From Eledone cirrhosa (lineage: Eukaryota): a stretch of DNA of 64,000 bases. The notes under the pieces are model-generated. The model did no database searches. It was not told the DNA's origin and saw nothing but the letters and a program-made list of their open reading frames with translations. The DNA is taken from contig OZ024740.1 of assembly GCA_964016885.1 (NCBI GenBank), forward strand, positions 388,740,001-388,804,000, read 5' to 3'. Position numbers and translations under genes: made by a program. Positions 25,084-60,922 of this stretch are shown here, piece by piece. Position 1 is the stretch's first letter, and every line of letters begins with the position of its first letter.

Positions 25084-25393
25084 TAAAACTGACGCCGTAT
25101 GTATGTAACAAACTTTTGGCAAAACGGCGGGACCAAACAGCACCAAATTTGCACCGTAGATGTAACTTTTTCCAAGGAAGAAAGTGAGGGTATTTTGTTC
25201 TACTAAATTTCGTTATTATTGATTTAAAATATTTTGTTTATCTAAAGATTCACTTCTTTAGATTTTTCAAATGTTAACACTTCCGGTTAGCGATCACTTA
25301 AATAAACATTCATATATTTTGCAGTTTATATGAATCTTCGTCATTTTTTTAATGTATCATGGATTAAATGTCTATGTATATTGTCCATCTCTA

Positions 25394-26661
25394 TCTATAT
25401 TAATAAAGATGACTACATTACTGTACTTTATTATATATAATATATATAATACGACATTCCTCTCTCTTTCTTACTCTATCATTTTAGATAGATACATAGC
25501 TATAACGTCGCGTGCTATAATATCTGGTTGCATGTCTGCCTGTCTCCATTGACGTCACTTCTAACCAACTTTTAATTAATTATATATATATATATAATTA
25601 TATATTCCTGTACTTATTTTCAATAGTAATACTGTAATATATTTTCAGCAGTAGTACTATACTATATATTTTCAACAGTAGTACTGTACTAAGTATATTC
25701 AACAGTAATACTATACTATATGTATTCAACAGTAATACTGTACTACACAATATATTTTCAACAGTAATACTGTACTGTACTATATATTTTCAAGAGTAAT
25801 ACTGTCCTGTACTATATATTTTCAACAGTAATACTGTACTGTACAATTTATTTTCAACAGTAATACTGTACTGTACAATATATTTTCAACAGTAATATTA
25901 TCCTACACTATATATTTTCAACAGTAATACTATTTATTTTCAATAGAGATATTATATTATACTATATATTTTCAACAGTAATACTATATATTTTCAATAG
26001 AGATATTATATTATACTATATATTTTCAACAGTAATACTATACTATATATTTTCAACACTAATACTATATTATACTATATATGTTCAACAGTAATACTAT
26101 ACTATATATTTTCAACAGTAATACTATGCTATATATTTTCAACAGTAATACTGTACTATATATTTTCAACAATAATACTGTACTACATATTTTCAACAGT
26201 AATACTATACTACACTATATATTTTCAACAGTAATACTGTACTACACTATATATTTTCAACAGTAATACTGTTCTGTACTATATATTTTCCACAGTAATA
26301 CTGTATTATACTATGTATTTTCAACAGTAATACTATACTATACTATATATTTTCTACAGTAATACTGTACTATATATTTTCCACAGTAATACTGTATTAT
26401 ACTATATTTTCAACAGTAATACTGTACTATATATTTTCAACAGTAATACAGTACTATACTATATATTTTCAACAGTAATACTGTAGTATATATTTTCAAC
26501 AGTAATACTATACCATATATTTTCAACAGTAATACTATAAAACACAGACGGCTTATCGTCTGTTATCCAAGTGAAGCTAGGTACGTCAGCTATATATATA
26601 TATATATGGATGTCGTAGAACACGCCAATGGTAGCCGGGCGCCAGCCGGACAGGCCAGCTA

Positions 26662-26662
<1 letters not shown>
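25394..26662 (+). mobile_element. Probable non-autonomous Helitron-like element(s)
   Basis: 5' A|TCTATATTAATAAAG at 25394; 3'-like ends GTGAAGCTAGGTACGTCAGCTA (about 26592) and GC-rich hairpin plus CAGCTAG|T (26662). Confidence 0.5.
25615..26538. repeat. Minisatellite, 27-32 bp unit TTTTCAACAGTAATACTGTACTA(TACTA)TATA, about 30 copies
   Basis: Directly visible head-to-tail array without unique spacers. Confidence 0.95.
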
Positions 26663-26699
<37 letters not shown>

Positions 26700-26715
26700 T
26701 AAAATAACAGATTAA

Positions 26716-26765
26716 AGTTTAAGCAAAGAATCGCTGCTTTCACCCTTAACGGGATCTTCTGAAAC

Positions 26766-26766
<1 letters not shown>
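26716..26766 (-). ncRNA. Hammerhead-like motif with CAGAAGA core in a Naiad pLTR fragment
   Basis: Reverse complement: AGTTT-CAGAAGA-T-CCC/GGG-T-GAAA-GCAG..TTGC-TT-AAACT. Confidence 0.6.
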
Positions 26767-26810
<44 letters not shown>

Positions 26811-26832
26811 AGTATATATATATATATATATA

Positions 26833-27019
26833 ATTGTTTCTACTTTTGGCACAAGGCCAGCAATTACCCAGTGCATTACTGGTACTTTATTTTATCGACC
26901 CCGTAAGGATGAAAGGCAAAGTCAACCTCGGCGGGATTTGAACTCAGATCGTAAAGGGACGTAACTATGCTGGAAAGCATGGCGTCCGACCCTCTACCGA
27001 TACTGCCAATCCACCGCCC
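26833..27019 (-). mobile_element. tRNA-derived SINE family 1 within (TA)n
   Basis: Near-identical to 34351-34525 and 19741-19929. Confidence 0.95.
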
Positions 27020-27383
27020 TATATATATATATATATAATATAAACTGTTATAATATAAACTGTTATAATATAATAAAATAAAATATACTTACAACCCTAA
27101 TTCTTCATAAAATATACTTATAAATATTATCTCTATAATATTTAAACTCACTATTAGAATAGATCCAATAATAAGTAGCATCTCTTACTTTTTAAAATTG
27201 ATATTCTACCACTTCAATACATTTATAATTCTCATATTATATTATAAATACCGCCAAAATATATAAATATATAATCAAACAAATAAATATAATTACTTCA
27301 CTCTCTTTACACCATCACTAATACGATACATTAATAATAATAGTCTATTTCTAACTATAATATACCTTTTTCTTATATTATTT

Positions 27384-27500
27384 CCCCGCCGAGGTTGACT
27401 TTGCCTTTCATCCTTACAGGGTCGATAAAATAAATAAAGAATTTAATATTCCTCTAATTCTTAAATGCACTGGCCTTGTGCCTAAAGTAGAAACAATTAT
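27384..27500 (+). mobile_element. SINE family 1 3' fragment
   Basis: CCGCCGAGGTTGACTTTGCCTTTCATCC...GGCCTTGTGCCTAAAGTAGAAACAAT. Confidence 0.85.
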
Positions 27501-27726
27501 TTCCTTAAATTTTCTTACACCCTAATATTAATGTTAACCTCTCCCTCCTCTTTCCTTAAAAAATAATTCTAATATTTATTTAAATTTACCTAGCGTCGAA
27601 ATATAACGATCCTTTTCAGCTTTAACATATTCATCCTAAGATTTGAATTTCTTTCACTATTCAAACAGAACTTAAAACGATAAGGTCTTGTTTTGGGATA
27701 TATCACTATCTATAAAACAACTTTTG

Positions 27727-27788
27727 TATGTTATCTGATGAGAGCGTACCAAAAGTTTTGGTACCCTTGAAATATATATAATAAAATA
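27727..27788 (+). ncRNA. Minimal type I hammerhead ribozyme, family B
   Basis: TTAT-CTGATGA-stem II (GTACCAAAA/TTTTGGTAC)-GAAA-TATATA-TA-ATAA. Confidence 0.75.
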
Positions 27789-27924
27789 AATATGGTTTTA
27801 TAAAGATAGTTTCCATTTATTAATATTATTGATATTATACTCCAGAAGAAAACTGTAGAGTGCTTCGAATCTGTTATAAATAAATTTGTTGAATAACCAA
27901 CAAATTAAATAACTCTTTGCTTAT

Positions 27925-27977
<53 letters not shown>

Positions 27978-28113
27978 CAGAAGGGATATTCAATTTGTTG
28001 GTAATTCAACAAATATAAATGTTTATAACTGATTCAGAGCACTCGACAGTATTTCTGGAGTATAATATTCAATGATATTAGATAAATGGAAACTATATTT
28101 ATAAAACCATATT

Positions 28114-28174
28114 TATTCTATTATATATATTTCAAGGGTACCAAAATATTGGTACGCTTTCATCAGATAAAATA
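28114..28174 (-). ncRNA. Minimal type I hammerhead ribozyme, family B
   Basis: Reverse complement: TATTTTAT-CTGATGA-AAGCGTACCAA..TTGGTACCCTT-GAAA-TATATATA-ATAGAATA. Confidence 0.75.
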
Positions 28175-28299
28175 CGAAGTGTGTTTTATAAATGTTGACA
28201 TAACCAAGGAAAATACCCTAAAGTTCAGGTTTACCTTGGAAAACTTGAACCGTTGAGGTATTTTCCTTGGTTATGTCAAAATTTGTAAAACACACTTCG

Positions 28300-28360
28300 T
28301 ATTTTAACTGATGAAAGCGAAACAATGTTTTGGTACTCTTGAAATATATATAATAGAATA
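28300..28360 (+). ncRNA. Hammerhead family B, decayed copy in the opposite fold-back arm
   Basis: CTGATGA at 28308 and GAAA at 28341; arms about 28065-28218 and 28257-28405. Confidence 0.6.
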
Positions 28361-28427
28361 AATATGGTTTTATAAATATAGTTTCCATTTATTTAATATC
28401 ATTGTATATACATATATATATATATAT

Positions 28428-28633
28428 AACAAAGGAAGTGTGGTAAGGAACAAGATGGACCATAACGCACCAGCGTACTCAATACTTAGGGTAGTAGAGT
28501 GAGAAATAGGAAAAAGTATGACCCCGACGCCAGAGCTCAAGCCGTTTCGACGTCCAGAAATAGCCGTCCATAAATACCAGTCCATAAATAGACGACGAAA
28601 CGGCTTGAGCTCTGCCGTCGGGGTCATAGTTTT

Positions 28634-28636
<3 letters not shown>
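28428..28636. mobile_element. Family A pLTR fold-back
   Basis: Palindrome TATGACCCCGACG...CGTCGGGGTCATA; flanked by (TA)n. Confidence 0.75.
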
Positions 28637-28692
<56 letters not shown>

Positions 28693-28840
28693 ATATTGAA
28701 AAATTAACACACTAGAGAGATACAGTGCGCTATCAATAAGACAGGGAAAAACCACCAGGGCAGCCCAAAACTCAGAGAAGTGTGCTCAACCAAACAGAGA
28801 GAGAGAAAAGACTGTCATAAGGAGCGAAATATCACGATGC

Positions 28841-29599
28841 ATTAACGGAGCCATAGACTCTCGTCATTCCCTGTAAATAATTTGCTCAAAGGAGAGGAAA
28901 TCCTGAGCTCTTTAAAATACAATATGTTGAAAAGGTAACAGACTAGAGAGAAATACAGTGCGCTATCAATAAAGCAGGGAAAAACCACCAGTGTATGGAA
29001 TATATAACCTCTGAAAGGCAGAGTATACACACGATAATGAATAATATAAATTAAAGCGTAAATAAATACCTCTATAACTATATAACACACGTACAAATCC
29101 AAAGTGATCTGTTTCGCCAGTAAGTTGTTGACAGAAATGAAATAACCCCGGTTCATCAGCGTGTGTAAGGCTATACATTTCAGACAACACTAAGAGAATG
29201 TTTAAAGCGACCGTCCAGCTACACGTGGGAGAGATAATTCACAGCGTGTTTAACGGCAGTGGCCTCTGTGGGACGAGCTACTAGAAAGGGCAGCCCAAAA
29301 CCACTCAGAGTTACTGGCGAAACAGATCACTTTGGATTTGAACGTGTGTTATATAGTTATAGAGGTATTTATTTACGCTTTAATTTATATTTTTAATTAT
29401 CGTGTGTATACTCTGCCTTTCATAGGTTATAGATTCCATACATTGGTGGTTTTTCCCTGTTTTATTGATAACGCACTGTATCTCTCTCTAGTGTGTTACC
29501 TTTTCAACATATTGTATTTTAAAGAGCTCAGGATTTCCTCTCCTTTGAACACATTATTTACAGGGAATGACGAGAGTCTATGGCTCCGTTAATATATCG

Positions 29600-29600
<1 letters not shown>
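28841..29600. mobile_element. PLE-type inverted pLTR cassette, family E, with about 285-bp arms
   Basis: 28841-29123 is the reverse complement of 29311-29592; followed by (TA)n. Confidence 0.8.
29085..29166 (-). ncRNA. Canonical type I hammerhead ribozyme (GUA site)
   Basis: Reverse complement: ACACACG-CTGATGA-A-CCGG..CTGG-C-GAAACAGATC..GATTTGTA-CGTGTGT, with 7-bp stem I and 7-bp stem III. Confidence 0.85.
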
Positions 29601-29652
<52 letters not shown>

Positions 29653-29867
29653 TATGTATGTATACGTACATACGTATATGTCTACAGACGTACAGTAGTA
29701 TGTATATATATACATATATAAGCCGTACAATTCATTTTTTTCATTTACCGTTTTCTGTGCGCCTGGCCGACTAAACTCACTCGAAATGCAAATTAGGCTG
29801 CTCAGCCGTTAGTGTGCATAAGGAGGGTATATACTTTCAGACGTTCAATCATCTGGCAGGAAGGTAT

Positions 29868-29910
29868 ACGATGCTGACGATAGCTAATAAGCTTGAAACT
29901 AGTACATCGT
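29868..29910 (+). ncRNA. Minimal type I hammerhead with palindromic stem III
   Basis: ACGATG-CTGACGA-T-AGCT-AATA-AGCT-T-GAA-ACTAGT-A-CATCGT. Confidence 0.85.
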
Positions 29911-30310
29911 TCCTTTGTCAGTGTTGAACAAAAGGGAAACGATGGTTGCTGAACACTGTACGGCTTAATTCGGGCTGTTTGTTTGCAAACAAACCGAACA
30001 TTATAAAAAATGTTCGATAAACCGATACGTTCGTATATATATATGTGTATATGTGTACATGTATGTATATATATACATACTACTGTACGTCTGTATACAT
30101 ATATGTATGTACGTATACATACATACTTACATTTAAGTAACTGCCGTACTAGGAGTGAGAAATGAAATTTCGTTTCATTTTTTCCATTTATCGTTTTCGG
30201 TGCGCCTGGCCGACTAAACTCACTCGAAATGCAAATTAGGCTGCTGAGCCGTTAGTGTGCATAAGGAGGGTATATACTTTCAGACGTTCAATCATCTGGC
30301 AGGAAGGTAT

Positions 30311-30353
30311 ACGACGCTGACGATAACTAATAAGCTTGAAACTAGTACATCGT
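30311..30353 (+). ncRNA. Second family C hammerhead, with one mismatch each in stems I and II
   Basis: ACGACG-CTGACGA-TAACTAATAAGCTT-GAAACTAGTA-CATCGT. Confidence 0.75.
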
Positions 30354-30612
30354 TCCTTTGTCAGTGTTGAACAAAAGGGCAACGATGGTTGCTGAACAAT
30401 GTACGGCTTAATTCGGGCTGTTTGATTGCAAACAAACCGAATATTATAAAAAATGTTCTGTAAACCGATACGTACACATATATATGTGTACATGTATGTA
30501 TATATATACATACTACTGTACGTCTGTATACATACATACTGACATTTAAGTTACTGCCGTCCTAGGAGTGAGAAATGAAATTTCGTTTCATTTTTTCCAT
30601 ATATATATATAT

Positions 30613-31127
30613 AAATGGCTTGTACAGGACTAGAACTGTTTCATTCGGAGGAAATCATCAGGAAAGCCAATTGTCAATGTAATATGGTGGTATTCATACA
30701 TTTTCTGGTGGTAGGGTAGGCTGGTGATTAGGAAGGGTGGGGGACATCTGTTTGCTTGGAATAAATGGACCTTGAAAATTAGGAATGCCTGTGAGTGTGT
30801 ATGTGTTCGTCTATAGATACTTAGCGGGAATTTACTTTTGCCTTTGTATCACTATGTATATTTCTCTAAATACAGTTTTTTTTAAAGAATCCCCATTCTT
30901 CAAATGCATCAGCCAATGACCTTCATCCATTCCAATCACCACCCTCTACTACCACCAGAAAATGTATAAATACCACCATATTACATTGACAGTCCGGTTT
31001 CCTGATGAATTCATCCGAATGAAACAGACCTAGTCCTGAAGAAGCCATTTCTATATTAAATAGTTATACTCTGCTATGCATTGAGTACCTTACTTGCTGT
31101 GGTTACCCCCGATTGAACCTGGGATAA

Positions 31128-31130
<3 letters not shown>
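30613..31130. mobile_element. Inverted pLTR cassette, family D, with hammerheads at 30617-30668 (-) and 30996-31046 (+)
   Basis: Consensus GGTTTC-CTGATGA-ATTC/GAAT-GAAACAG..CTGTA-GAAGCC. Each copy carries substitutions; a third fragment lies at 55907-55950. Confidence 0.75.
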
Positions 31131-31181
<51 letters not shown>

Positions 31182-31758
31182 TGCGTATGGTATATTAAAT
31201 TTGAAGTTTGAAAGCCACAATATATATTTCACATACTATGCTCAAACTTCAAAATAATATCTGCTCATTGTATTTATTTCAAGTGATGAATTAATAAGTA
31301 AGAGATGAAAAAGTACCAGAGAAGAAGGGGCAAGGGGATTCGTGTATTTATATCGTATGTTATACTATTTCCTAATGCAATGTTTAATCTTTATACTGTC
31401 AAATTTATTCAACGCACATTTATGATTGCAATGAATAAAGTTGGATTTAATTGGACCTAAAATCATTACCGGTAAATGGTGAGAAATATTTCTGCCTACA
31501 ACAAATAGCATCGTACAATGATTATTTAGAAGGAGAACTTATATTGTATTTTTTCAAGTTTCATATTTGTAATGATTATGTCATAATAATTCTTTTACAT
31601 AAAATCATTCAAAACAATGGGACACAAATACATTAGAATCAGTCAAATTTTCTTGTTTATTGTGATATCATTTTGCAATAAAAAATAAAGCAGCTCAGTG
31701 CATCTAAAATATTGATATCGGTTGTATAATGTGTAATACTTCTTAAGTACATTCATTT

Positions 31759-31948
31759 AGTTGCGACGTCACTGGTGCCAAGCTGTATCGGTCATTGCCT
31801 TTCCCTTGGACAACATCGGTGGCGTAGAGAGGGGAGGCTGGTATGCATGGGCGACTACTGGTCTTCCACCAAAAAACCTTGCCAAGCCTCGGAGGGAAAC
31901 TTTCTCGGAGGGTGCAAAACCATGGTCATTCGTGACCGAGTGGGGCCA
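31759..31948 (+). mobile_element. Probable 3' body of SINE family 2
   Basis: GC-rich island beginning AGTTGCGACGTCACTGGTGCCAAGCTG. Recalled as a cephalopod SINE body; the link to the head at 60923 is inferred. Confidence 0.5.
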
Positions 31949-34350
31949 AAGTAAAGCAAACATTCTTTGTAAGAGTTTAAATTGGTTAAAACTATACCGT
32001 CTAATATTGTTCTGATATATTGCGTCACTAAACTGTTTCTGCACAAATATAGACATTTTCATGATATAAAATGTGTAAATTCCGGACACCACATGCTAGT
32101 ATCCGTACGTTTAGGTCCAATAAGGTGATGCTTAATATCTTTATTTGTAATATGAGGGACCTACACCACTATTTAACAATCTTTATTACTATGTTGTTGT
32201 TTTTATTTAAGTTCCAAAGTTTGTACGAAAACCATTGTTTTCTTCTTTTAGTGCAGTTGTTATTGTTAATTATGTTTGTTATTGTTAATATTGTTAATTA
32301 TGCAATGGCGAAATGATTAACAACCACCAGATGGGGTTAGTTGCTACCCCTTGGACCTTACGTGACCAGTCTGGGTGTTGAAAAGAAAGAAAAATAATTT
32401 TGTCTTCGAAGATCATTTAAAATAACGATTTCCTATCATAAAAGCTGAAAGCGTGACTGGTGACTCCCGGCAGATGCACTGTCACAGAATTATAAGGTAG
32501 AACTAGGAGAGAAGCTAATGAAAGTTACATGGATAAGGGAACATTAGAGGATGTAATGAAATGATACTTCATGAACAAACCAAATCAGACAGGGTCAAAG
32601 AATGCTGAGAATAATGAACGAAATTAGTGTGTTTCAAATCCAATAACAAAACAGAAACTTCAGAATGCTTTATAAAGCGTGATTGCTACTTGTGTCCAAC
32701 CTAGAATTATAGGAATTTAGTTGATTGATAAAAGATCAGTATGGGACATCAATGAATAGAAATAGGGTTAACCCTTTGATTTAACGGATATGAATTGGGT
32801 AGAGAGGAAATAGTATCATGAATGAGACAGGATTTCGGCGTAGCGATAAAATCAAGCTAACAATATATTAGACAAAATAAAATAAAACAGTACTACATAG
32901 AAACGTGGTAAACTTAGAGCATTTCTAGAAATACGGTAAAGGATATTTCAGTCAATAACTAAATGATACTTCTACTTCAAATATTACTTCAATTTTATAT
33001 TTTAAAAAATACATAAAATTATGGTTTATTTGTTGAACATTTTATATATTGTCAAAAACAATTTTCTCTTCAGATCCTGTTAACATTTTCAAGAGCATTT
33101 TTCAAAAGGTTTATACAAAAAAGAAATTATTTAACTCGATTATGATACATTTAGAGAAGAAAATTAATAATGTACATTCAAATTGAAATAATCATTGATT
33201 CATTTCTCCATCTTTACTTTGGCAAACATTTTAGAAATTTTGATATTAGTATTGCTTTCCATTTTACACCAGACATCTAAATTACAATATGGATTTATAA
33301 AACCGGAATCTATAAATCATGCTGGATTTATTCTGAAGGAAACAGCTCCATATTCTCCATATTCTCCAATCAGAATATTTATTTTGCTTCCTTGGTTGTG
33401 GAAAAGGCTTCTGACAAAATGTGTTGAGATGGAATGGTTTACAAACTGGGTGTTTTAGATTTTTACAGTAGAAAACATTACATGATTAATACATTCAGTC
33501 TATGTTTCATATTTCATATACATCGGTAGTCATGTGGTGTCACATAAGTGATGTTCTCAGCTCCTTCTTTTTTCATGTGCATATATGAATGATGTTTTAT
33601 CACTGTTAAAAAAAAGTCCTTTAGGTACTTCAAATAATAATATTTCTGTAAGTACTGTTTCTTATGCCGAGGATATCTTATTAATCGGGAGTTCACCATA
33701 TTGATTCTAAAATATATTAAATATAAGGAATCCAAATTAAATCCAACTAAAACCGCTATTATATGATTTCGAAGAGACCCCATTTTTTGTGATCAGTCTG
33801 AATGAGATAGCATGATCAACATACAATGTGAATTGTTGTTGTTTTTATGCAATAGTAAGGATAAATTCCATTTACAATTTCATATTACACTCAAATTGAT
33901 TCAAATGGAGCAGAAAATTGAATTTGTTTCATTCGCAAGTTATTCATTATTATCATCCTTCGTCCATTGGATATACTTTTAAAACTAAATTATTATATGG
34001 AATTGATTTTGTCAATTATAATACAACTTTAATATTATTGATTAGCTTAAAATAAGGGAAAATGTTTCAATTCCTATTTCGTTTTCCCAAACATTGCTCC
34101 AAATAACTATTAAAATCATTTCCTTTGAAGATATTTGAAAACTACATCTGGAAGCAACAGTAAAATTATTATATTCAAATAGTTATACAGGCATTTACTA
34201 TACATCAATTCTCGAATGGCTAAAGCAATTAAATATATATTCGTGAAAATGTATCAATTTAAAACATGAACGTATTTCAAATCTTTTTATAGAGATATTC
34301 CAAACATTCTTTTAAATTAAATGGTATTATTGAATCCGTAAATCATTTAA

Positions 34351-36295: not shown

Positions 36296-39200
36296 TTACA
36301 TAAAGTAGACATTAAGGACAGTACAGGACAATACATGACGGTACAAATGGGCATTTCTGCGTGTAAAAAACAGAGGATGTAATAAAATAACAAAGAAAAA
36401 TTCCCCAAAAGGGGGGAGACTTCCGAGGGACATTTGTGGAGAAAGCCCATTAAAAGACCACAGTGACCCTAACCACCAGGAAGGCCCATTCAGAGAAGGC
36501 CCATTCATTCGGGCCATACTTGCCTCTCTCACCCATCTTTCAACAAAATGCTGGGAAGAGAGCACTTCCCTCTCTACCCTGATTTTCCTTTTCAAATGAA
36601 ATTTGAAAAAGTTAATCAGGGCATCACCGAAGAGATAAGTGCTCGTCTTCAGCCCTTTCAAACGTGTCCACCATACTATCTCTTTCGCCATGGCCACCAG
36701 ACAGATAAAAACTGCCTGCCCTTCCCGGCTAAAGGAAGAGGGCGGGGCAATCCTTACGATGGACTCAGCTGATAGCTGGATCCGTCCTACACGTGACAGC
36801 AGGTGTTCGACATAAACCCACAAGTCAGCAATGCTCGGACACTGGACGAGTGCGTGCAGGACGGTTTCGTCGCCCTGTGCGCATCTCGGACATGCCCGGC
36901 TGACGGCACCTCCATGCCTGTAGAGTTTATCCCGAACTGGCAAAGCACCCCGGTAGCACTGCCAGGCCAGGGATTTCTGGAAGTTGTCCATAGGCCCCGG
37001 CCCGAAAGTCCTTCCGAAAAGATTGGCTAGTTGATTTTCGTCGACGCCTAGAGTTTCTCCAAGTACGTCGTCGCTCTTACCCTCCACTAATCCCCTATAG
37101 AACGCCAAGGTGGAGTTTCCACCGATCACATTGCCCGATTGGTCGAGGGCTGTGAGCGCCTGAAGACATTCCAGTCTCCAAGCGCTCCCTCTCGGTCTTC
37201 GCTTGACCCAGGACTGCAGCTCCGTCAAGGAGACGAGCTGGGGAAAAACGTGTCTAGCAAACGGCGACCACACCTGATCACCATCGAGGAAGAGGTGGAG
37301 ATGTCGTAGCCTGAGTGCGTGTCTGCGCATCATCAGTCACGGCATGCCCAGCCCTCCACGTAGCGGGTGTTGACAGCAGATGGACCGCCTGACCATCGGA
37401 GCGCGTCCCTTCCACAAGAAGCGAAAGAGCAAACGCTCCAGCGCAGTCAGGCGGGGCTTAGGACAAGGTACGACGGTCAGGCGGTAGTAGATAACGGACG
37501 CGATGTACGCGTTAGCCACCTCCACTCGACCTTTCAGGGATAGCTTCCTCTCGGCCCATTTCTGGGTGAGAGAAACCACCCTGCTCGTCACCTCGTCCCA
37601 GTTTTTGTCCGTCTGGAGGTCTGGACCGAACCAGTCCCCTAGCAATTTAACCAGTCCGTCCGTCCAGCGCCCGACGACGCTGTTGGACGGCATGGACCTG
37701 CCTCTCCAGGTGCCAAGCTGCAGGCCCACTGACTTTTCCTGGTTGATCATTGCTCCTGTCACCGCTTCGTATTCTCTTAGTGTAGTGCCGATCGCCTCGA
37801 TGTGTTTGGCGTTCGACACTACTACGGTGACATCGTCGGCATATGCTGACACGGATCTTCCGCATCCTAGTTCGCGCGGGACCCCCCTCAACGTCTCCAG
37901 TTTGTGCAGTAATGGCTCGAGAGTCAATACGTACAATAGGGACGAGAGGGGACATCCTTGGCGGACCGAGCGCATGATGTTGAACGGTTCCGAAAGGTGA
38001 CCGTTCACTCTCACTACAGAGCAGATGTCGCTGTGCATGGCAGCGATCCAGCCTCTGAAGACGGGCCCAAAGCCAGCCGCCCTCAGGACTGCCGCTAGGT
38101 AACGATGGTCGACCCTATCGAAGGCTTTCGACTGATCTAAATTGATCAAAGACCCACCCGTGCCAGGTTCCCTAGCTACCCTCTCTACGATGTATCGCAT
38201 GAGGTGGAGGTTGTCGTGGATGGATCTGTTGGGAATGGCGCATGTCTGTGCCTCTCCCACCAGACCACCAACGACAAGCGCCAACCTCTTTGCTAGCACC
38301 TTGGCCAAAATCTTTAACTCTGTGTTTAGCAGAGTTATGGGCCTAAAATTATCTATGTTATCCCCCTTGTTCGGATCCTTTCTCAGCAGCGCCACCGCTC
38401 CTCGGCTCACAGAGCTGGGAATTCTCCCGTTCTGTTGCCAGTTGCCAAGAGGCCTCCGAACAAGTCTGGCATTTGTACGTAAAGTTCATAGGGCAGACCA
38501 TCTAAACCAGGCGATTTACCCCTTGTGCAGCCAGTCATTGCCTCCCGTACTTCAGCGGTTGTTATCGGCTTTTCGCAACACTCCGCCTCAGTGGCCGAAA
38601 GCCGCGGCAGTCCGTCGAGGTAGACACTAAAGTCCATCCCTCGATCCGGCCCGCCACTGCCCCCGAACAGTTGAGCGAAGTGTCGCTGAAAAGCTTCACA
38701 CATTTGCCCGGAATCGAGTAGCATGCGCCCGTCGTGGTCCACCAAAGACCGGATCGTGGCTTTATTGCCACGACGCGCCTCCGCCACTCGGGTCCATTGA
38801 ACCGCTTTCGTCCCCTCGTGTATGAGAGCACGCACCCTAGCTCTGACAACGCAGCCTTCGTGCTTTGCATTGAAGAATTGGTCAAGGGCCAATTTCGCCG
38901 CAAGTACGTCGGTCGCGATGCCTTTGCTAAGCGCCTCGTCTAATTTTCTAACTAATTCTCCCTCTGCTCTATTTTTCTCTATTGCTAAAGCCTTACTAAA
39001 CCTAATGGACTCTACTCTAATTGCTCTTTTCAGAGCAAACCACCACTTGTTGTTGACGATGGCCCCCGTCAACGCCCGCTTAACTAGTTCGCTAATCCGG
39101 TCTCTGTAGGCCTTGCGCGCAGGTAAGGACGCGTTTAGCTTCCAGTAGCCGGGTACTCGTCTATGAAGCCTATCTAAGTCAAGCACACAGATCACGAATT

Positions 39201-39882
39201 TGTGGTCCGTATAGCTGACTATCTTGAATTGTGGACAGCCTATGCTAGACCTATCTATTTCCCTACAACATACTCTATCTAGATATGATCTGGATGACCC
39301 TATGCGATTTGTCCAAGTCCACATTGGTACATTCGGGAAATCCATTCGGTACCTGTCAGACAGTTAAAAACGCCTGAGCAGGTTGGTGAGACTCTTGCAC
39401 CCTCCTTCCCTATCCACTAATCCCACACAATACCAGCGTGCATCTAAGATCCCGTTCCAGTCGCCTACTAACACTAAAGAGCGGGACGTTCAAAGAAAGG
39501 TCTCCAGACGCCGGAAGAAATCAGGCCGCCCTGCTCCTGTCGGGGCATAGACGGCCACTAACCTGAAAGCTTGCCCTTCTCCGCTGGTCACGTCCAGCAC
39601 CACCAACTTACCTTCTGGGTCCAGGAAGATGGCCAGTATGGCAAGATCCAAACCTCTCCGAAAAAGCACAGCAACTCCTCCCCCCGATCCCGGACGGCTG
39701 GGAGATGCGTACACATCGTAGCCGCCGAATATCGGTGCGAAGGCACGTGCTTCGGAGATTCTGGTCTCGCTGATGGTCACTACATCTATGTTTAGTGACC
39801 TGAGGTTGTTGAGCAGGTGGCCCTACTTCCATGACGACCCCAAGCCACGCGCATTTATGCTGCCTATTCTGAGTGAGGTCAT
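36296..39882 (-). pseudogene. Tx1 ORF2 (APE endonuclease, RT, C-terminal Cys/His finger) with several stops and a frameshift
   Basis: MTSLRIGSINARGL, VYAP, GDWN, YLDR, TDH, PGYWKLN, NFRPITLLN, DQSKAFDRV, RQGCPLS, YADD, CPRC..ETVLHALVQC. Confidence 0.95.
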
Positions 39883-40059
39883 GTTGAAAAGGAGTGGAAA
39901 AGATGGGAAAGACCTCTTACCTTACTTCTCGTAGGGGAAAGACGGTTTTTCCATCCTTTTCACTGCTTGTGGCCTCCTCAGGAAGGATGTCCTTATAAAT
40001 CCTCCTGGAGAGTGCTTGTCGGAAGTCTCCGATGTCTTTGGGGAATTTTTGTTTTAGTG

Positions 40060-41808
40060 TCATGTACGTTTTCTGTGTGATGCGAGTGATTTGTATGTGT
40101 GGAGGTGGTGTGAATTTTTGGGTTGCTGTGTAGTCTTTTTCTGTGATGCTGGTGTTGTGTTGGATGTAGTGTAATAATTGCTTGTTTTCAAATTTAATGC
40201 TGTGTAGTGTGTATCGTTTTGGTTGTTTTGTTTTGTTTGCGTTTGTTGTGGGTTTGTTTCTGTTTCGCTTTTTAGTGACTTTTGTGGTGTAGTTGATGTT
40301 GGTGTTGGGGTTAATGATGGTGATGGTGTTGGTGTTTGGGTTGATGGGGTTGGTGATGCTGGTGTGGATGGTGGCATATCTGTCCTAACTTTTTTGTTTG
40401 ATAGTTTATTTGTTTCCCTCTGTATTTTGTTTTTGGAGGGGAAGGGAAGAGGATTTTTTCTTTTTGGGTTTCTTTTTCTTTTTTTCTTTTTTCCTGATAC
40501 CGTTTCCCACTCCTCGTCGTCACAATCTGTCTCCAGTTGCGATAAGCCGGGGAGTGGAAAATCCTCCACAGGCGTTGGTTTTGGTTGTGGCGTGGTGGAT
40601 GGTGTAGGCGCTGGTGCTAGTTCTGGCGCGTTGGGTGGTGGTGATGCTGGTTTTGCTACTGTTGCTGGGGTTGTTGCTGTTACAGTTGCTTCTGTTGCTG
40701 CTGTTACAGTTGTTGCTGCCATTTCTGCTGGGATGGGTAAGAGAGGTTGCTTCAACCTTTTAGCCTGAGGGCAGAAAGCCCTTAGGTGGGTTCCTTCACC
40801 ACAAACGACACACCTAGGCCTTCTGCCCTCGACGATTACGGTGAGGTGGCTGCCGTCAGTGAGGTCTATTACCTCTGGGATCTCCTCAATGCTTTTTTTG
40901 TCCACTTGGATCAGGAGCTCCATCCCAGATCCGAACCAGTTCTCGTGGTTTTCTTTCGCTATTTCGATTATCTTAGTGTTGGCTTCGATGCCAGCGAGGA
41001 CGGCAGCCATTAGCCAGGGAATTTTGATGGCCGGTGGAACGTGGGTCACCCTGATCTTCACGAGTCTCTGGCTACAATAGCTTGGGACGAGTGTGAAGTC
41101 GTCACTTTTTAATGGGGCCATGGAGTGTTCTCTGGCCTCCTGTGGTGTTTCAAAGAACACGTCCACGGTTCCATATTTCTGCCCACGTCTGATGTGGGGG
41201 TTTTTTGCCCACACATGTCCCAAAGCTTTTTGGATTTGGGACTCGGATGCCCGTTCTACTCGGCGCGATTTTATGTTAATCGTCCGATAAGACACGGTGC
41301 ATAGGAGCCGATGCTCCATTTTATTAGGTGGGGGGGGGGGGCTGACCCATCTTTCTTTACCATTTTGGGGGGCTCCTTCTAAGTCCTCCTGAGTTACCTG
41401 GAATGCTTCGCACTTTTTTGCTACTCTCGTAAAAGACAGGGTAGTTTTCTTAATTTCATTGTTGCCGTTGTTGTTATCGTTATTTTTGTTATTGTTAATT
41501 TTAGTTTTAGTTGTGGTGGTGGTGGCGTCAGTGGTCTTCGGTGTGGAAGAGTTCATTTTGGTTGAATTCATTTCGATATCACGAGTTAATTTATTTTTTT
41601 CTTTTGTTTCTGTTGTCGCTGTGGTGGGGGTGGCGGCTTTAACACCTGCAATCATTTGTAATGGCGGGAAATGAATGTCTGCCTGAGACAAATTTAAAAT
41701 ATTGCTACTGCTTATATTTTTAGTGTTGGCAAACGTAGTAATATTTACAATGGTGGTGTCGGTGTGAGGTGTTAGTTTGTGAGGAAGGTGTGACCCTGAG
41801 TCGTCCAT
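40060..41808 (-). CDS. Tx1 ORF1 (gag-like, CCHC zinc knuckle, Pro/Thr-rich and basic tail)
   Basis: 582-aa ORF upstream of ORF2; CVVCGEGTHLRAFC; WETVSGKKKKRKR. Confidence 0.85.
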   Translation of the reverse strand: MDDSGSHLPHKLTPHTDTTIVNITTFANTKNISSSNILNLSQADIHFPPLQMIAGVKAATPTTATTETKEKNKLTRDIEMNSTKMNSSTPKTTDATTTTTKTKINNNKNNDNNNGNNEIKKTTLSFTRVAKKCEAFQVTQEDLEGAPQNGKERWVSPPPPPNKMEHRLLCTVSYRTINIKSRRVERASESQIQKALGHVWAKNPHIRRGQKYGTVDVFFETPQEAREHSMAPLKSDDFTLVPSYCSQRLVKIRVTHVPPAIKIPWLMAAVLAGIEANTKIIEIAKENHENWFGSGMELLIQVDKKSIEEIPEVIDLTDGSHLTVIVEGRRPRCVVCGEGTHLRAFCPQAKRLKQPLLPIPAEMAATTVTAATEATVTATTPATVAKPASPPPNAPELAPAPTPSTTPQPKPTPVEDFPLPGLSQLETDCDDEEWETVSGKKKKRKRNPKRKNPLPFPSKNKIQRETNKLSNKKVRTDMPPSTPASPTPSTQTPTPSPSLTPTPTSTTPQKSLKSETETNPQQTQTKQNNQNDTHYTALNLKTSNYYTTSNTTPASQKKTTQQPKNSHHLHTYKSLASHRKRT

Positions 41809-42042
41809 GATTTTTCAAAGAAGAATTTTTGTTTGATAATTATAAAAGTTTAAATTTTGGGCTCAAGGCCCCAATCTTTTTGGGTGTCCTTTTCAGATAA
41901 CAATGTATGTGCACTTATATACAGTTAACAATAAGATTTTTCCATAAATGGCAATTTTAAACAACTGAAAATAACAAACCTTTTCGGAACTCACGATGAT
42001 ACGATTTACTACGTAGGTCCCCAATAATAATAATAATAATAA

Positions 42043-42133
42043 TTGTTTCTACTTTTGGCACAAGGCCAGCAATTACTCAGTGCATTACTGGTACTTTATT
42101 TTAACGACCCCGTAAGGATGAAAGGCAAAGTTA
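42043..42133 (-). mobile_element. 5'-truncated SINE family 1 within (AAT)n
   Basis: Matches the SINE 3' half. Confidence 0.9.
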
Positions 42134-42148
42134 ATAATAATAATAATA

Positions 42149-43274
42149 ATGAGATGTAATGTTGCTGAACAAAAAGAAATGGATAGGAAGACTAGGAAAC
42201 TATTGACTATCTACAATATGTTCCACAAAATGAGTGATGTCGATAGACTCTACTTAAGAAGATCTGAAGGTGGAAGAGGTCTTATCAGCATAGAGGACTG
42301 TGTTCAGATGGAGAAAAACAACCTACACAAATACGTGACTGATAGTATGGAGCCAATGCTCAGAATTGTACTGAAAGAGAGGACAATAGACCAGGGGATG
42401 TCCAGGGAGGAAGTAACAACAAGGAGAACGAGGAACCTTCATGAAAAATCCCTTCATAGTGCCTTCTTTGAGGAAACTGAATTTAGAGATCCACAGACAT
42501 GGGACTGGTTGAAAAGAGAAGACCTTAAAAAGGCTACATAAGGAATGCTAATGGCTGCGCAAGAGCAGGCCCTCAAAACGAAGTGGCTGAAGCACCATAT
42601 TTACAAGGAGGAGGCTAGCCCACTGTGTAGGATCTGTGGAGAGAGAGAGGAGACTGTGGCTCACATTGTATCCCAGTGTAAACACCTAGCGCAGACTCAC
42701 TATAAGGGCTGGAGACATGATGTGATGGGCAGTGTGATCCACTGGCACCTATGCATAGTAAACAATTTACCACATTCTGAGAAGTGGTATGGGCATAAGC
42801 CAGAGTCGGTGATAGAAAACGGTCAGGTGAAGGTGCTGTGCGATTTTAGGATACAGACGGACAAGAAACTGGAACACAATAGTCCTGACCTGGTGGTTGT
42901 GGACAAAGAAAAAAGATCGTGCCTGATTGTGGATGTGGCCTGCCCATTCGACACGAGAGTGCAAGAGAAGGAGAGGGAGAAAATTAACCGATACCAGGAC
43001 TTAAAGTAGGAGGTAAAAAGGATTTGGAACTGCCATGAAGTCAAAGTGATCCCGATTGTTATAGGCGCACTAGGGACTATCTCAAAAAGTTTCCAGGGAT
43101 GGTTAAAGAAAATTGGCCCCTTCACGCTTTTTGGAACGCTTCAAAAGGCATGCTTGCTGGGAACAACAAGAACCCTCCGATACGTCCTGAATATCTGAGG
43201 CTGCAGGTAGTGGCTTGATATTTATTTCAACAAACTTTCCAGTTAACTAACATCAATGACTGAGACTCAAAGAG
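42149..43274 (+). mobile_element. 5'-truncated Dong/R4-like LINE family 1
   Basis: [42 protein letters not shown]; closely similar to 44880-46002; flanked by (AAT)n. Confidence 0.95.
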
Positions 43275-43281
43275 TAATAAC

Positions 43282-43320
<39 letters not shown>

Positions 43321-43321
<1 letters not shown>

Positions 43322-48352: not shown

Positions 48353-48768
48353 TACAAATGAATATATGATAGGGATAAACACAGATCAAGTATACATGTG
48401 TTCGCATTGCAAATGACCAAGTTAGCTAGATTGAAAAATACTAATTAAAATAATACGGTTTGCCTGTCTCGATTTAAATCAATAAAAACAAACCTATATT
48501 GGCAATAGCCGTGATACCCGGACACATTTTTAATTTGTTTCACAACAATTAAGTGAAAGTTACTATTCCTGTTACTATGCTGTTGCGAAACAAATTTAAA
48601 ATTTGCCCGGGCCACGGCTATCGCCAATTTAGGTTTGTTTTTATTGATTTAAATCGAGACAGGCAAACCGTATTATTTTAATTAGTATTTTTCAATCTAG
48701 CTAACTTGGTCATTTGCAATGCGAACACGTGTATACTTGATCTGTGTTTATCCCTATCATATATTTAT

Positions 48769-55772: not shown

Positions 55773-55857
55773 ATTTATATATATATATAAATGTACTGCA
55801 AAATACACTAAATATATTGCAAAATACACTATATATACATTCATATATTATTATTAT

Positions 55858-56021: not shown

Positions 56022-56417
56022 CACACACACACATATATATATATAGTAATAATAATAAATTTGAAGACTAAAATCCAAAGAGGGCTCGATAAGGATAAAT
56101 ATATATCAAATATATAAGAACTGTAGAGCAAATATTTATTAAAATAACAGATTAAAGTTTAAGCAAAGAATCGCTGCGTTCACCCTTAACGGGATCTTCT
56201 GAAACTAACAAAGTTAATCTGTAAACGCAGAAGTGGTGAAAGCAGCGATTCTTTGCTTAAACTTTAATCTGTTATTTTAATAAATATTTGCTCTACGGTT
56301 CTTATATATTTGATATATATTTATCCTTATCGAGCCCTCTTTGGATTTTAGTCTTCAAATTTATTATTATTACTATTTGGCTCCCTCGGTTGAGCACTCT
56401 ATTGACTTATATTCATC

Positions 56418-58541
56418 ATGCAGAAACAAGATCTGAATATTTCTACAAAGAACATACCCGTACCAAGCAGGAAAACATACCTAAAACTCCTGATACAGAA
56501 AACAGACGCGTTCATTAAAAGGTTACGTTGGCGTGCCTTTTATTTCGATAATCCGCGAAAAGCAGACAACAAACAGGATAAATTTGGGTTTAAAACCTAT
56601 AATAACCCCCCGTGTAACCCAGCATTGCTACCCTTCGAAAATGATGTCTTGGAACTCATACGGAGTATCAAATTTCGGAATAGGAGCAATTCCTTCCAGC
56701 AGGACCTGAAGGATAGAATTCGTTCTATTAAGGATTCTAATACCGTGCACGTCCATTCCGACAAAACTGGCAACCTACATCAAGTGGAGCGCAGTACTTA
56801 CCATCAACTACTACATAATGCTGTAACTAAGGATTACCGTAAAACTAATCGGTGCGTCATCAATGAAATCAACGATGCTGGGTTTAAAATCACATCTGAT
56901 CTCAACATCCTGAACCGGACCGAAACTCTGGACTCTATTTCTCCCCACTTTACCCTGAAGGATCACAAGTCCAATTTTCCGAACAACCCCTCTATTCGGC
57001 TTATTAACCCTACGAAGTCCGATTTAGGTAGACTTAGTAAAACGATTCTTGATAGAATTATACCTGAAATTAGAAGTTTGGCCCCTCTTGCACTGTGGAA
57101 CAATTCTTTCGCGGTGATTGATTGGTTCAACGGCATATGTAACAAGGAACATTGCCGTTTTATCCAATTCGACATCAACAATTGCTACTCCTCCATCACT
57201 TTACCACATGTCCTTAGAGCTATCAATTTCGCTAAAACACTCACAGTGGTTAAGGATTTCGAAGTTGATGTCATCCTCAATGTCCGTAAGTCGGTGATTA
57301 ATTTCGACGACTCTATTTGGATTAAAAAATCCAATAGTACCCCATTCGACGTCAGTATGGGCGCCAACGATTCTGCGGAGGTTACTGATCTTATCGGCCT
57401 TTTCCTTCTTTTCTCTATCAAGGACGAATTCCCCAACGCGGGCGGTGGTTTGTACCGTGATGATGGTCTTTTGACCATGACTAAGTGCGGACCTCGTGCT
57501 TACGACAGGTTCAGAAAAGAACTCACAGCCTTCTTTAAAGGCTTCAACCTCTCTATACAGGTTGAGGCCAATCTCTCAGTCGTTAATTACCTCGATGTTA
57601 CCCTCAATTTATTGAATGGGTTGTATTACCCGTATAGAAAGCCGAATGATACGCTAATTACATAAGTAAGCATTCCAACCATCCTGCCAGCATAACCAAG
57701 AACCTGGCAAGAAACGTTTCGTCGAGGCTTTCCCGTCTATCTACTAACGAGCATATTTTCAACGACCATTCCACTTATGAAGCTCTTGCTCGGAGTGGAT
57801 TTGTCGATAAGGTAGCATATACAGAGTACGAAAATAGACCTAGAAGAAATAGATCCCGTCGCATTTGTTGGTATAACCCACCATATAATATGGAAGTGGC
57901 CATACCATTAGCTAAGATCTTTCTTTACCTTATTACGAAGCATTTTCCCCCTACACATAAATATAGTAAACATTTTTAATAGAAATACTATTAAAATTTC
58001 TTACTCTACGACTCCTAACCTTGCACATAACATCACAACTTCAAATTTAGCTAAACTACCTAGCCGTAGGAACACGTGCAACCCTGTAGTTAGTACTAAC
58101 TGTAATTGTAGGAATCGGGTTGATTGCCCCCTATCCGGGAAATGCCTCTCTAGTAACATTGTCTACAAATGTAAGGTTGAAACACCCACGTCCCGTAGGG
58201 CCTACATAGGGTTAACCGCCAATAGATTCAAGCAGCGTATTTACATGTATACCCATTCTTTTCGTTACTCTCTAAGAAGGAATGTGACGTCACTTTCAGC
58301 TTATATCTGGAGTCTAAAAGACAACCACACCCAATATAAGTTACACTGGGCGATCCTAGCTAGGGCTAGATCGTATAATGGAAATAAAAGACCATGTGAC
58401 CTCTGCGCCGCTGAGGCCCTGGAAATACTCTACGCCACAGACCACATCTTAAACAAAAAATCTGAGGCAATTTCGGCTTGTAAACATAAATTGCACAAAA
58501 CTTTCCTGTATTACAGCCCCACGTTATACCCTAACGGATAG
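56418..58541 (+). pseudogene. PLE RT plus GIY-YIG endonuclease, with frameshifts near 57655 and 57975
   Basis: STKNIP..FIKRLRWRAF, SDKTGN, RLINP.KS, FDI, MGA, YRDDGL, YLDVTL, SNHP, WYNPPY, CNC..CPL.GKC, IVY..YIG, CDLC..E, LNK.SE. Confidence 0.92.
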
Positions 58542-58944
58542 TACGATCTATACGTGGATATTTTACGTCTTGATGTGGTAGCTAAGTATATGTTTTGTTT
58601 ATACCATTACTTATTTGCATAGGTAAGTATTTATTACCTGTATGTTTTGTGAAGGTACGTATACCTTCTCGTACGTATATTTGATTGTATATGTTATGGC
58701 GTATAATTTTATATATTCTGGTACATATGGTTTGGTTATGTGTATACGGGAGTTTTGCGTCTGTGTGAGTATGCAGGTTCGTACGTATGTAGGGTGTGTG
58801 TATATGTGTACTTCATGTTTTGGTTGACGTAGTCTCCGAACATTTGTGTATTTACATGTAGGTATGTGCGTGCGCTTGTAATATACGTATTTTTTTTATT
58901 TATATACGTTTATTTAATTATTTATTTATTTGTACACAAGCATA

Positions 58945-59115
58945 CACACACACACACATATTTATATGTGCGTGGTTTTGTATACCTATGGTAAGGTTTT
59001 GCGTATGCTTGTGTATGTACGTATTTTTTCGCGTGTAAGTATTTATTTATTTCTATTACTTCTGTATTGAATTTATTTACTTTGTTCTTAACTCTGTAGC
59101 GGAGATTCATTTGGT

Positions 59116-59192
<77 letters not shown>

Positions 59193-59625
59193 TTATATGT
59201 GCGTGGTTTGGTATACCTATGGCAAGTGTTTTCGCGTATGCTTGTGTATGTACGTATTTGCATGCGTGTATGTATTTATTTAACTTCTCTTACCTCTGTA
59301 TTGTATTTTATTTACTTTATTCTTAACTCTGAAGCGGAGATTCATTTGGTCTCCTAGTTATAATTTTATTCTACGACTTTAGCTATACCATTTACGTGGT
59401 TTTGTCTTTGCGTGCAATTGTTCTCCACGCTCCACATATGACGTATTATCATCGTTTTTTCCGTTCATTGCCAGAGAACGTCTCTATGAACCACCTAAGA
59501 GAACATTAGTCTACAACTTCTTTTATACCATAAACGTGGTTCTGTCTTTGCGTATAATTGTTTTTCATTAATGACGTAATATATTCGTTTTGTCCCGTTC
59601 TTTGCCAGGGAACGTTCCACGAACC
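58945..59625. repeat. Two tandem duplications in the PLE 3' UTR (about 175 bp around (CA)n, and about 120 bp)
   Basis: 58957-59118 resembles 59188-59352; 59387-59500 resembles 59527-59625. Confidence 0.8.
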
Positions 59626-59704
59626 AAAGTATCGTCTTCATGTCTTCCTCCGGTTGCAACGTTTTTTGAAATATCCACTTCTGCGTTTACAGATTGACTT
59701 TGTT

Positions 59705-59755
59705 AATTTCAGAAGATCCCGTTAAGTATGAAAGCAGAGATTATTTGCTTAAACT
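59705..59755 (+). ncRNA. Naiad 3' pLTR hammerhead-like motif (CAGAAGA core, decayed stem II)
   Basis: AATTT-CAGAAGA-TCCCGTTAAGTAT-GAAAGCAG..TTGCTT-AAACT. Confidence 0.55.
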
Positions 59756-60922
59756 TTAACTTTAATCTGTTATTTTAATAAATATATATATATATATATA
59801 CTTCGTTTTTTAATTTATTTTGCAACATTTCTTATCTGAAAACGTGTGTTGAAATAGATATTGTTATACTTTGGGAGGGTCATGCTGCTGATAAAAATAC
59901 ACACACCTGTTGGTTTCACTTCAATTTATTATAAATTTGCGCTTGGTTGATTGGTTGTTTCGAAAACCGGATGGTTGTTTATATATTGTCAAAGCTCTCT
60001 CGTCACAGAATATAATAGAAAACAATAATAAATGTCAACAAAACTAGTTCCCCTACAGTGGTGGACTGCATTTTAAGATAATTTCAGGGAGAAATCCCAC
60101 ACATAGCCCTGGATTATTCTATTGTCTCACAGTCATTTAACGTGTCCTCTCCCGACTTCTTACCTTCCTTTTCAAGTATCAGTTTACTAGTTTTTTGTTA
60201 GCCATTTTTTATCGTTATATAGATAAAATAACTAGAATCTTTGTTAGCTGATTGTTATTAGTCTACCTGTAGCCTTAAAGAGTTAAACCCATGTTTATTT
60301 TACAAATATGCCTCTCAATCTTTTACAGGGAATATGGCAGACAAAATTATTTTCATCTGAAAACGAGAACAGCCGGCTTTCGACAAAATGGAACATGTGA
60401 AGTTCAGAAAACTGCAGTGGCAACAACAACAGCAACAAAGCACGGGAATTAAGTGAAGAGTACCATATTAATTTCTGGCATTTAAAAACATTGACAAGGT
60501 CGTCACCCCACCCCCACCCCACCAGACGAACAAAGAATAAAACCAAAGCCAACAAAACCAACCACAACTCTAGCACAACACTGCCAGCACCACTACCCCA
60601 CCAACATCACATCAACCACAGCCCCAATGTCCACTACGAAAACAAAAAATATATAATAGAAAAAAAACAACAAAAGTAAGAGTAACACGAGTAACAACGA
60701 TGGCAACACACTGGCAACCCAAATGGCAACAACAAGAACAAAATGAACAACAACAATAAGACATTTGTAGCAACGGCTGCAAAAGCTTCAGGATTGTTAA
60801 TATGGACTCGATCGACAATGAAACTTGATTGGCACGAGCGGTCCTACTTGTCAAATTGGATAAGACTTGGTGCACAAGAATTGGATATTTGCTGGGTCCT
60901 GGACTGCGTGTTCCTCCAAGTG

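Follow-up and report, generated by a model that had tools for sequence, protein, structure and literature searches.

How do nine hammerhead ribozyme (HHR) motifs of several families come to lie together within 4.4 kb of the genome of Eledone cirrhosa, and do they constitute a ribozyme locus in their own right? The question is raised by positions 26663-31178, here called the island, of a 64,000-nucleotide stretch of contig OZ024740.1 (assembly GCA_964016885.1, positions 388,740,001 to 388,804,000 of the forward strand), which whole stretch we refer to as the window and from whose first letter all coordinates are counted. We consider it highly probable (roughly 85%) that the island is a pile of truncated and partly decayed element ends—from four families of Penelope-like elements (PLEs) with Hydra-clade motifs (A, B, E, and F) and two retrozyme-like tandem families (C and D)—that inserted independently and at different times in one TA microsatellite. 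On this reading the HHRs are likely to be passengers and not a selected ribozyme locus. The feature is well explained by known elements, as new members of the Hydra-type PLEs and of the retrozymes in a TA tract.

Makeup of the island

Motifs were sought with our own core-plus-helix HHR pattern (hereafter the descriptor), and the region 25500-32500 was also read directly; the island was set against a background of 78 arbitrary 10-kb stretches (780 kb) of the 3.0-Gb genome. The nine type I motifs that the first-pass annotation had reported, on both strands, were all found at their places, each coordinate being the low end of stem I. Seven were matched by the descriptor (five with a perfect core, two with one core mismatch), as against none in 100 block-wise dinucleotide shuffles of the local sequence; the two that it missed, 30311 and 30617, have damaged stems, yet are clear homologs of intact copies. 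Three additional 3' half-HHRs were present, family C contributing one, at 29320-29350 (+), and a sixth family, F, the other two, within 28428-28636. An Rfam scan of the window returned no hammerhead at E<=1, its matches being chance miRNA-like ones on TA hairpins. The cassettes, some of which are ends of pseudo-long terminal repeats (pLTRs), are the following:

26663..26695: (TA)n tract, left edge of the pile
26696..26766 (-): family A, 71-bp 5'-truncated pLTR end; HHR 26716, core CAGAAGA (U4A), CUU triplet, predicted cut after 26721
26833..27019 (+): repeat like a short interspersed element (SINE), within the TA tract, non-PLE and without HHR, which we take to be of octopus type; 168 matches in the background
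27038..27921 (+): family B, 3' part of about 770 bp, interrupted by a SINE fragment (27385-27501); its long 3' end adjoins (TA)n
27727-27787 (+): minimal HHR of that B copy, helix III being the palindrome UAUAUA; predicted cut after 27780
27976..28217 (-): long-ended pLTR of a second family B subfamily; HHR 28114 intact, predicted cut after 28122
28257..28409 (+): inverted short-end copy of the preceding cassette; HHR 28300 damaged by changes in stem II and by an A-A mismatch beside the core, site after 28352
28428..28560 (-): family F, pLTR end; 3' half-HHR only (GAAA, helix III, UC, 3' strand of stem I)
28591..28636 (+): family F, inverted fragment; 3' half-HHR
28689..29310 (-): family C, non-coding tandem unit of about 540 bp plus the remnant of a second; intact HHR 29085-29166 with stable helix III and GUA triplet, predicted cut after 29092
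29311..29600 (+): family C, inverted 5'-truncated copy; 3' half-HHR, UA changed to AA; forms a 295-nt arm 95% complementary to 28829-29123
29651..29719 (-): family D end, inverted fragment, from the inverted-repeat comparison
29731..30173 (+): family D, unit 1, 443-bp period; HHR 29868 intact, its helix III palindromic (CUAG), site after 29904
30174..30598 (+): family D, unit 2; both stem I and stem II of HHR 30311 mismatched, GUA site after 30347 intact
30607..30747 (-): short-end copy of family E, inverted; in HHR 30617 a C-C mismatch adjoins the cut site (after 30623)
30916..31129 (+): long-ended pLTR of family E, continuing between the arms; HHR 30996, U16.1 changed to A
31130..31178: (TA)n tract, right edge; the flank beyond had no match in the fetched loci

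(TA)n parts these cassettes, and from 26663 to 31178 there are only repeat cassettes and (TA)n, with no unique DNA, two pieces of the abundant non-PLE SINE included. The longest ATG-initiated open reading frame (ORF) of the island has 104 aa, one stop-to-stop frame of 149 aa overlaps family D, and tblastn with the PLE protein encoded elsewhere in the window found no match inside the island; the cassettes are, as had been described, separated by (TA)n and devoid of an ORF of their own. The long hairpins likewise foreseen are present, with arms of 141-295 nt that are 84-95% complementary.

Parentage of the families

The first-pass annotation had spoken of five unrelated families. Families A to E indeed show no DNA similarity beyond the HHR core, but with F the families are six, and four of the six trace to PLEs, whose reverse transcriptase (RT) and endonuclease (EN) pieces are 38-50% identical to the PLE protein of the window. 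That protein belongs to an element lying well to the right of the island:

56136..59781 (+): disrupted autonomous PLE that bears Hydra-clade motifs and represents the parent family of A; inverted pLTR 56136-56206 (-), partial pLTR 56235-56283, RT-EN ORF pieces 56406-58541, and 3' pLTR 59707-59781 followed by (TA)n

A pLTR joined to an RT/GIY-YIG ORF was found for A (in the window and at locus L216), for B (L010), for E (L156), and for F (L189, L177, and others). Direct continuation into an RT ORF was seen for the B end at L010, the E end at L156, and the F end at L189, and F lies downstream of the EN in about 12 of 29 loci. The window ORF contains RWR, DKT, CxCX5C, CxxC, and CxH, and lacks CCHH, the features by which the Hydra clade is defined in PMC8557442; RWR and DKT recur at L010 and L189, the decayed copy at L156 has RWR with NKT, and the EN of the F-family locus L177 shares with that of the window the CxCX5C linker, the CxxC and CxH motifs, and the absence of CCHH. 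Pfam recognized no family in the two window PLE ORF pieces. As judged from these sequences, A, B, E, and F are pLTRs of autonomous PLEs with Hydra-clade motifs.

Families C and D present a different arrangement, in which the DNA upstream of a copy is the previous unit: the same-strand spacing was 532-543 bp for C and 420-479 bp for D (six of six in each), and locus C1 carries five D copies at about 420 bp. The units measure 532-543 bp (about 540) in C and 420-443 bp (about 435) in D, with a GC content of 40 and 37%, respectively; in the island, D is a dimer with one of its HHRs damaged, and C has one complete HHR. C and D, non-coding and arranged head to tail, are retrozyme-like, and the origin suggested at the outset—PLE pLTRs or retrozymes—stands for both groups.

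The element ends bear a common signature. In families A to E there are two fixed 3' ends, 55-90 nt apart (the interval being the tail) and adjoining (TA)n, so that the distance from cut site to (TA)n is bimodal in B (45-55 or 135-145), C (170-175 or 250-265), and E (10-25 or 85-90); for A and D the two ends are supported by end motifs. Downstream of each motif, at a distance of 25-270 nt, comes a fixed element end that adjoins (TA)n. A (TA)4 was present within 10 nt of 43 of 48 A long ends, 17 of 20 B long ends, 11 of 15 E long ends, and 40 of 42 F ends; among the short ends of A, B, and E and the ends of C and D, most others continue into the tail or the next tandem unit. Inverted truncated copies occur in all six families, and head-to-head inverted pairs numbered 24 in 51 loci for B, 11 in 30 for C, 9 in 32 for D, and 16 in 47 for E.

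Probable assembly within one TA tract

That a single (TA)n tract was colonised serially, as first proposed, is upheld indirectly by the lack of unique DNA, by the unequal identities of the cassettes, and by the other orders that their neighbours take at other loci. Identity to the closest genomic relatives is 100% for A, 96% for B, 95% for D, 93% for C, and 90% for E, which differences fit insertion at different times.

By analogy with PLE biology, the RT-EN protein would nick (TA)n and prime reverse transcription on the element RNA; priming at either of two fixed sites would generate the two 3' ends that delimit the tail; and reverse transcription, usually stopping early and often switching template, would leave a product made up of a short end and an inverted copy, with TA on its flanks. 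Every insertion would in this way leave TA on both sides as a fresh target, and C and D may well borrow the same RT-EN protein. A review states that PLEs tend to insert beside existing copies (PMC6765202).

The cassettes might instead have come together, as a composite mobile unit or through segmental duplication, and some loci do share family sets (L016 with B, D, and F; L027 with B, E, and F; L075 with E, D, F, and A); but those three loci differ in order and orientation, the identities of the cassettes range unequally from 90 to 100%, and the best genome matches per query stop at their own (TA)n junction, for which reasons we hold a joint arrival to be very improbable.

Hammerhead folds and predicted cleavage

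Whether the element ends still carry working ribozymes is a separate matter. The canonical core (C3 U4 G5 A6 N7 G8 A9, G12 A13 A14 A15, U16 H17) is present in seven of the nine motifs (the three of B, that of C, both of D, and E 30617), the departures being A (U4A) and E 30996 (U16.1A). Helix I, open as in type I, has 4-6 of its 6 pairs in all nine. In B 28300, D 30311, and E 30617 a mismatch falls at the core or next to it; together with E 30996 they bring the damaged motifs to four of nine; the lesions of these four deviate from the common form of their own family.

The first-pass annotation had named beforehand the lack of stem covariation as one of the grounds for giving up its proposal; covariation is clear in B and weak in E. 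The B alignment held 60 of 90 homologs found by sequence alone (the three window copies plus the most divergent ones), 28 near-identical rows and 2 junction matches having been omitted. In that alignment 9 of 11 helix II pairs showed two-sided changes, with 75 cells against 27 in shuffles (0 of 500), a figure that kinship among the copies inflates; the covariation score was 0.261, compared with at most 0.150 for slid registers; and RNAalifold recovered helix II unaided, with N7 varying and the core conserved. The count of covarying pairs as such did not exceed that of the shuffles (127 of 500). In E (73 of 74 rows) covariation was confined to helix I, with 13 cells versus 5.7, and A is nearly invariant across its copies. 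Because of the stem covariation in B, weak as it is in E, the master elements are judged, at the level of sequence, to have kept real hammerhead folds.

The island copies are another matter, and the assertion that a read-through transcript would be rich in self-cleavage sites is not supported. With five motifs on the plus and four on the minus strand, any read-through RNA carries at most five; four are lesioned; and in the predicted native-context folds D 29868 alone retains both helix I and helix II (probability 0.84-0.96), and in the other eight the value for helix I is at most 0.12. We used the helix I values because the helix II probabilities, computed for a simple register, understate B 28300. 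The inverted arms are predicted to sequester eight of the nine motifs. The D tandem may adopt a double hammerhead, formed by the core of unit 1 with the site of unit 2, which lies 0.7 kcal/mol above the minimum, whereas the reverse junction lies 6.9 kcal/mol above it; for this reason a single probable cut, after 30347, is predicted from the tandem. Read-through of the locus would, on these models, give long double-stranded hairpins with that one probable cut. Low activity is the norm for such motifs in vitro.

Folded as a circle, the D unit 29905-30347 has a predicted energy of -127 kcal/mol versus -97 +/- 6.5 in shuffles, in the manner of retrozyme circles; for the C unit the contrast is smaller (-132 versus -121 +/- 4.3 kcal/mol).

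These data also bear on the idea that the host co-opted the cluster as a functional self-cleaving module, serving either to terminate transcripts or to supply small or circular RNA. The island is denser than any of the 78 background stretches, and the D tandem can reach its double hammerhead at the small cost just given; nevertheless, four of nine motifs are lesioned away from the form of their family, three more are halves, both orientations occur, and clusters of four or five families recur in arbitrary sequence, so that we regard co-option as very improbable, the least probable of the explanations considered here.

Genome-wide load and rank of the island

The descriptor found 44 perfect-core motifs in the background and none in the reversed sequence, from which we estimate about 169,000 perfect-core motifs per genome (bootstrap 100,000-246,000). 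All the families run to thousands of copies; initial genome candidates numbered 2544 for B, 2592 for C, 2265 for D, and 4598 for E. Exact core patterns, which leave the stems unchecked, gave genome-wide 60,816 B-type matches (13 in the control), 26,985 E-type, 10,573 D, and 18,902 A (none in the controls of these three); family A copies were counted by a longer query and by exact patterns, the 71-bp cassette having given no matches as a DNA query. The genome-wide counts are asymmetric between strands (14,841 versus 12,144 for E; 5,527 versus 5,046 for D), which may point to large tandem arrays.

With 13 family probes we found 176 fragments in the 780 kb, or about one pLTR fragment per 4.4 kb, which density disposes of the rarity implied in the first reading of the island. 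Of those fragments, 90% lie within 150 bp of a (TA)5, compared with 30% of random placements. An animal genome with about one hammerhead-bearing fragment per 4 kb, missed by Rfam in this window, is of interest in itself. The island, with 12 fragments of six families in 4.4 kb, is the dense tail of a genome-wide continuum: the two best of the 78 stretches held, likewise within 4.4 kb, 9 fragments of five families and 9 of four, and five targeted 3.2-kb loci hold four or five families.

At least 7 further HHR families with palindromic helix III occur in background loci L121-L160 and L221-L258, the palindromes being TGCGCA, GTAC, TGCA, CAATTG, CTAATTAG, CAGCGCTG, and CCATGG.

Neighbours of another family are more frequent near C (16 of 27) and D (18 of 26) than in background tiles (73 of 234). 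One might suppose the island to be the chance upper tail of independent insertions in neighbouring TA tracts, the intervening DNA having been lost. TA tracts of at least 12 bp occur at a similar density in the background (21 per 10 kb) and in the island (12 in its 4.6 kb), and four of the six families lack a neighbour excess; against this supposition stand the lack of unique DNA between cassettes throughout 26663-31178 and the overdispersion of perfect-core motifs per stretch (mean 0.56, variance 1.26), to which, however, inverted pairs alone contribute. We deem this neighbouring-tract origin very improbable, if slightly less so than a joint arrival.

Several points nonetheless weigh against serial insertion of passenger ribozymes in one tract. 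The island exceeds every background stretch in fragments (12 versus 9) and in descriptor matches (7 versus a maximum of 5). There was no neighbour excess at A (9 of 29), B (10 of 29), E (12 of 29), or F (7 of 29) relative to 63-68 of 234 tiles, so that piling up as a general habit of these families is shown in part only. The order of insertion is a deduction, since no allele was seen in which the site was empty or filled in part. Membership of the Hydra clade was assigned by motifs and not by an RT tree; no ORF partner of C or D was found at any locus seen; and the fold predictions take no account of tertiary contacts, kinetics, or proteins.

Schistosomes may exceed this genome in motif density, the axolotl genome is about ten times larger than this one, and we claim no record density for Eledone. 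As points of reference, 126,247 motifs are given for the axolotl (PMC7229834), the giant squid paper lists 235 Rfam hammerheads, and the Octopus vulgaris repeat paper reports 31 recently active Penelope-like families.

Non-canonical cores

Of 53 aligned copies of family A, 52 carry an A at position 4 of the core. Genome-wide, 18,902 exact matches to the A-type pattern have A4 and 684 do not; among the first 10 non-A4 loci, 9 proved to be inversion junctions lying at a near-palindrome. On these grounds we rejected the notion that family A arose by decay from a U4 family. At those junctions (9 of the 10 loci L259-L268) a template switch at the near-palindrome in the A core restores the canonical CUGAAGA, with a weak helix I.

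Another, old HHR family has U4C in 12 of 13 matches across divergent subfamilies (L244:4745-4812, L022, L072, L165, L117, and L226), in which helix II varies but stays paired. In family F, C3 stands opposite A8 in 33 of 36 full cores and U3-A8 in the other 3. Of these variants, U4C has been described in viroids and U3-A8 in PLEs of schistosomes. An HHR with a CAGAAGA core, 8-bp helix I, and long helix III was seen in one full copy at L244:1800-1900 (-) and in part at window positions 48526-48604.

A search of the published hammerhead literature on core variants, octopus, and cephalopods yielded no report of U4A, the core-variant literature being incompletely covered, nor any report of such a hammerhead load in cephalopods; the scale of the load and an autonomous family of at least 18,900 copies with a U4A core are therefore, so far as we found, not in print. 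We put forward tentatively, as a proposal somewhat short of an even chance, that the genome harbours an undescribed radiation, with motifs numbering on the order of 10^5, of at least 13 families of Hydra-type PLEs and retrozymes that bear HHRs and target (TA)n, and that core position 4, supposedly invariant, is free in this radiation; that A and the U4C family either have active core variants, perhaps protein-assisted, or belong to PLEs that amplify without RNA cleavage; and that C and D are retrozymes with footprints of PLE-catalysed insertion. In the in vitro work on an Anolis PLE (PMC11167929), HHR cleavage was dispensable and protein-assisted, which result offers a ready explanation in either case. 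Canonical and non-canonical cores in successful PLE families provide a natural comparison on the need of HHR cleavage for transposition, and, if the proposal is true, the free position 4 and the PLE footprints on C and D would make the role of PLE hammerheads directly testable.

Comparison with known systems

Hydra-clade PLEs with HHRs and (TA)n targeting are already published, Octopus included; the island itself is vivid, yet expected from published biology, and its value is that of a pointer. Craig et al. (2021, PMC8557442) describe Hydra-clade PLEs, among them Hydra-1_Obim of Octopus bimaculoides, with HHRs and (TA)n targets. Shared with the elements studied here are the C-terminal GIY-YIG EN without CCHH, the DKT and RW(K/R) motifs, the CxCX5C linker, CxxC and CxH, the (TA)n targets, a type I HHR near the 3' end, and inverted 5'-truncated copies, as well as a U-U at the helix II base, frequent in the published HHRs and present in A, D, and E; the Hydra-1_Obim protein aligns by eye, motif by motif, with the window ORF. 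The differences are of scale and core: one octopus family is listed there, compared with at least 13 HHR families here, the largest with tens of thousands of copies each, and the Hydra HHRs of their file S2 are all CUGA, whereas A has CAGA, another family CCGA, and most F cores C3 opposite A8. The described PLE tail is 30-40 bp, as opposed to 55-90 nt here.

With the minimal PLE hammerheads of Cervera and de la Pena (2014, PMC4209133) the motifs have in common the type I topology, a short palindromic helix III (B and D), a long helix II, the occurrence singly or as opposite-strand pairs 100-700 bp apart, and covarying families; unlike those, most motifs here keep a small or full helix III, and multi-family piles in one microsatellite are not mentioned in the covered portion of that paper.

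C and D, known here from DNA alone, agree with the non-LTR retrozymes (Cervera and de la Pena, 2020, PMC7229834; Li et al., 2026, preprint 10.64898/2026.07.22.740005) in lacking coding capacity, in the head-to-tail order of units that each hold one type I HHR, in a GC content below 45%, and in ranging from monomers to multimers; within the 150-450 bp given there for the unit, D fits at 420-443 bp, and C exceeds it at about 540 bp. C and D are dispersed with the marks of PLE insertion—two fixed ends, inversions, and (TA)n junctions—whereas the covered part of the preprint by Li et al. bases a PLE origin on kinship of sequence and appeals to tandem amplification in place. In showing the tail, the inversions, and the target preference of PLEs, these retrozyme-like units lend structural support to mobilisation by PLEs, beyond kinship.

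Poseidon PAc of Anolis (Frangieh et al., 2024, PMC11167929) shares AT-rich nicking and two RT start sites that explain the tail, and its HHR needed protein and was dispensable for insertion in vitro; it belongs, however, to a different clade, and its HHR overlaps the ORF start, whereas here the cut site lies 25-270 nt inside the 3' end.

Other features of the window

Immediately before the first (TA)n lies a repeated element (25091-26662) with an internal minisatellite of 27-32 bp (25615-26539) leading to a GC-rich hairpin and CTAG, which we presume to be a Helitron-type 3' end; locus L103 has the same layout. A CTGACG at 26585 (-) was considered as a tenth HHR and rejected, for it lacks helix I and the sole other copy has the same non-core sequence. 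A smaller pile, with an A tail, an F pair, and E followed by the autonomous A element, occupies 55470-56283 in TA/CA repeats, and decayed non-LTR retrotransposon ORFs with RVT_1 domains are found at 36296-41814, 42122-45928, and 52249-54563.

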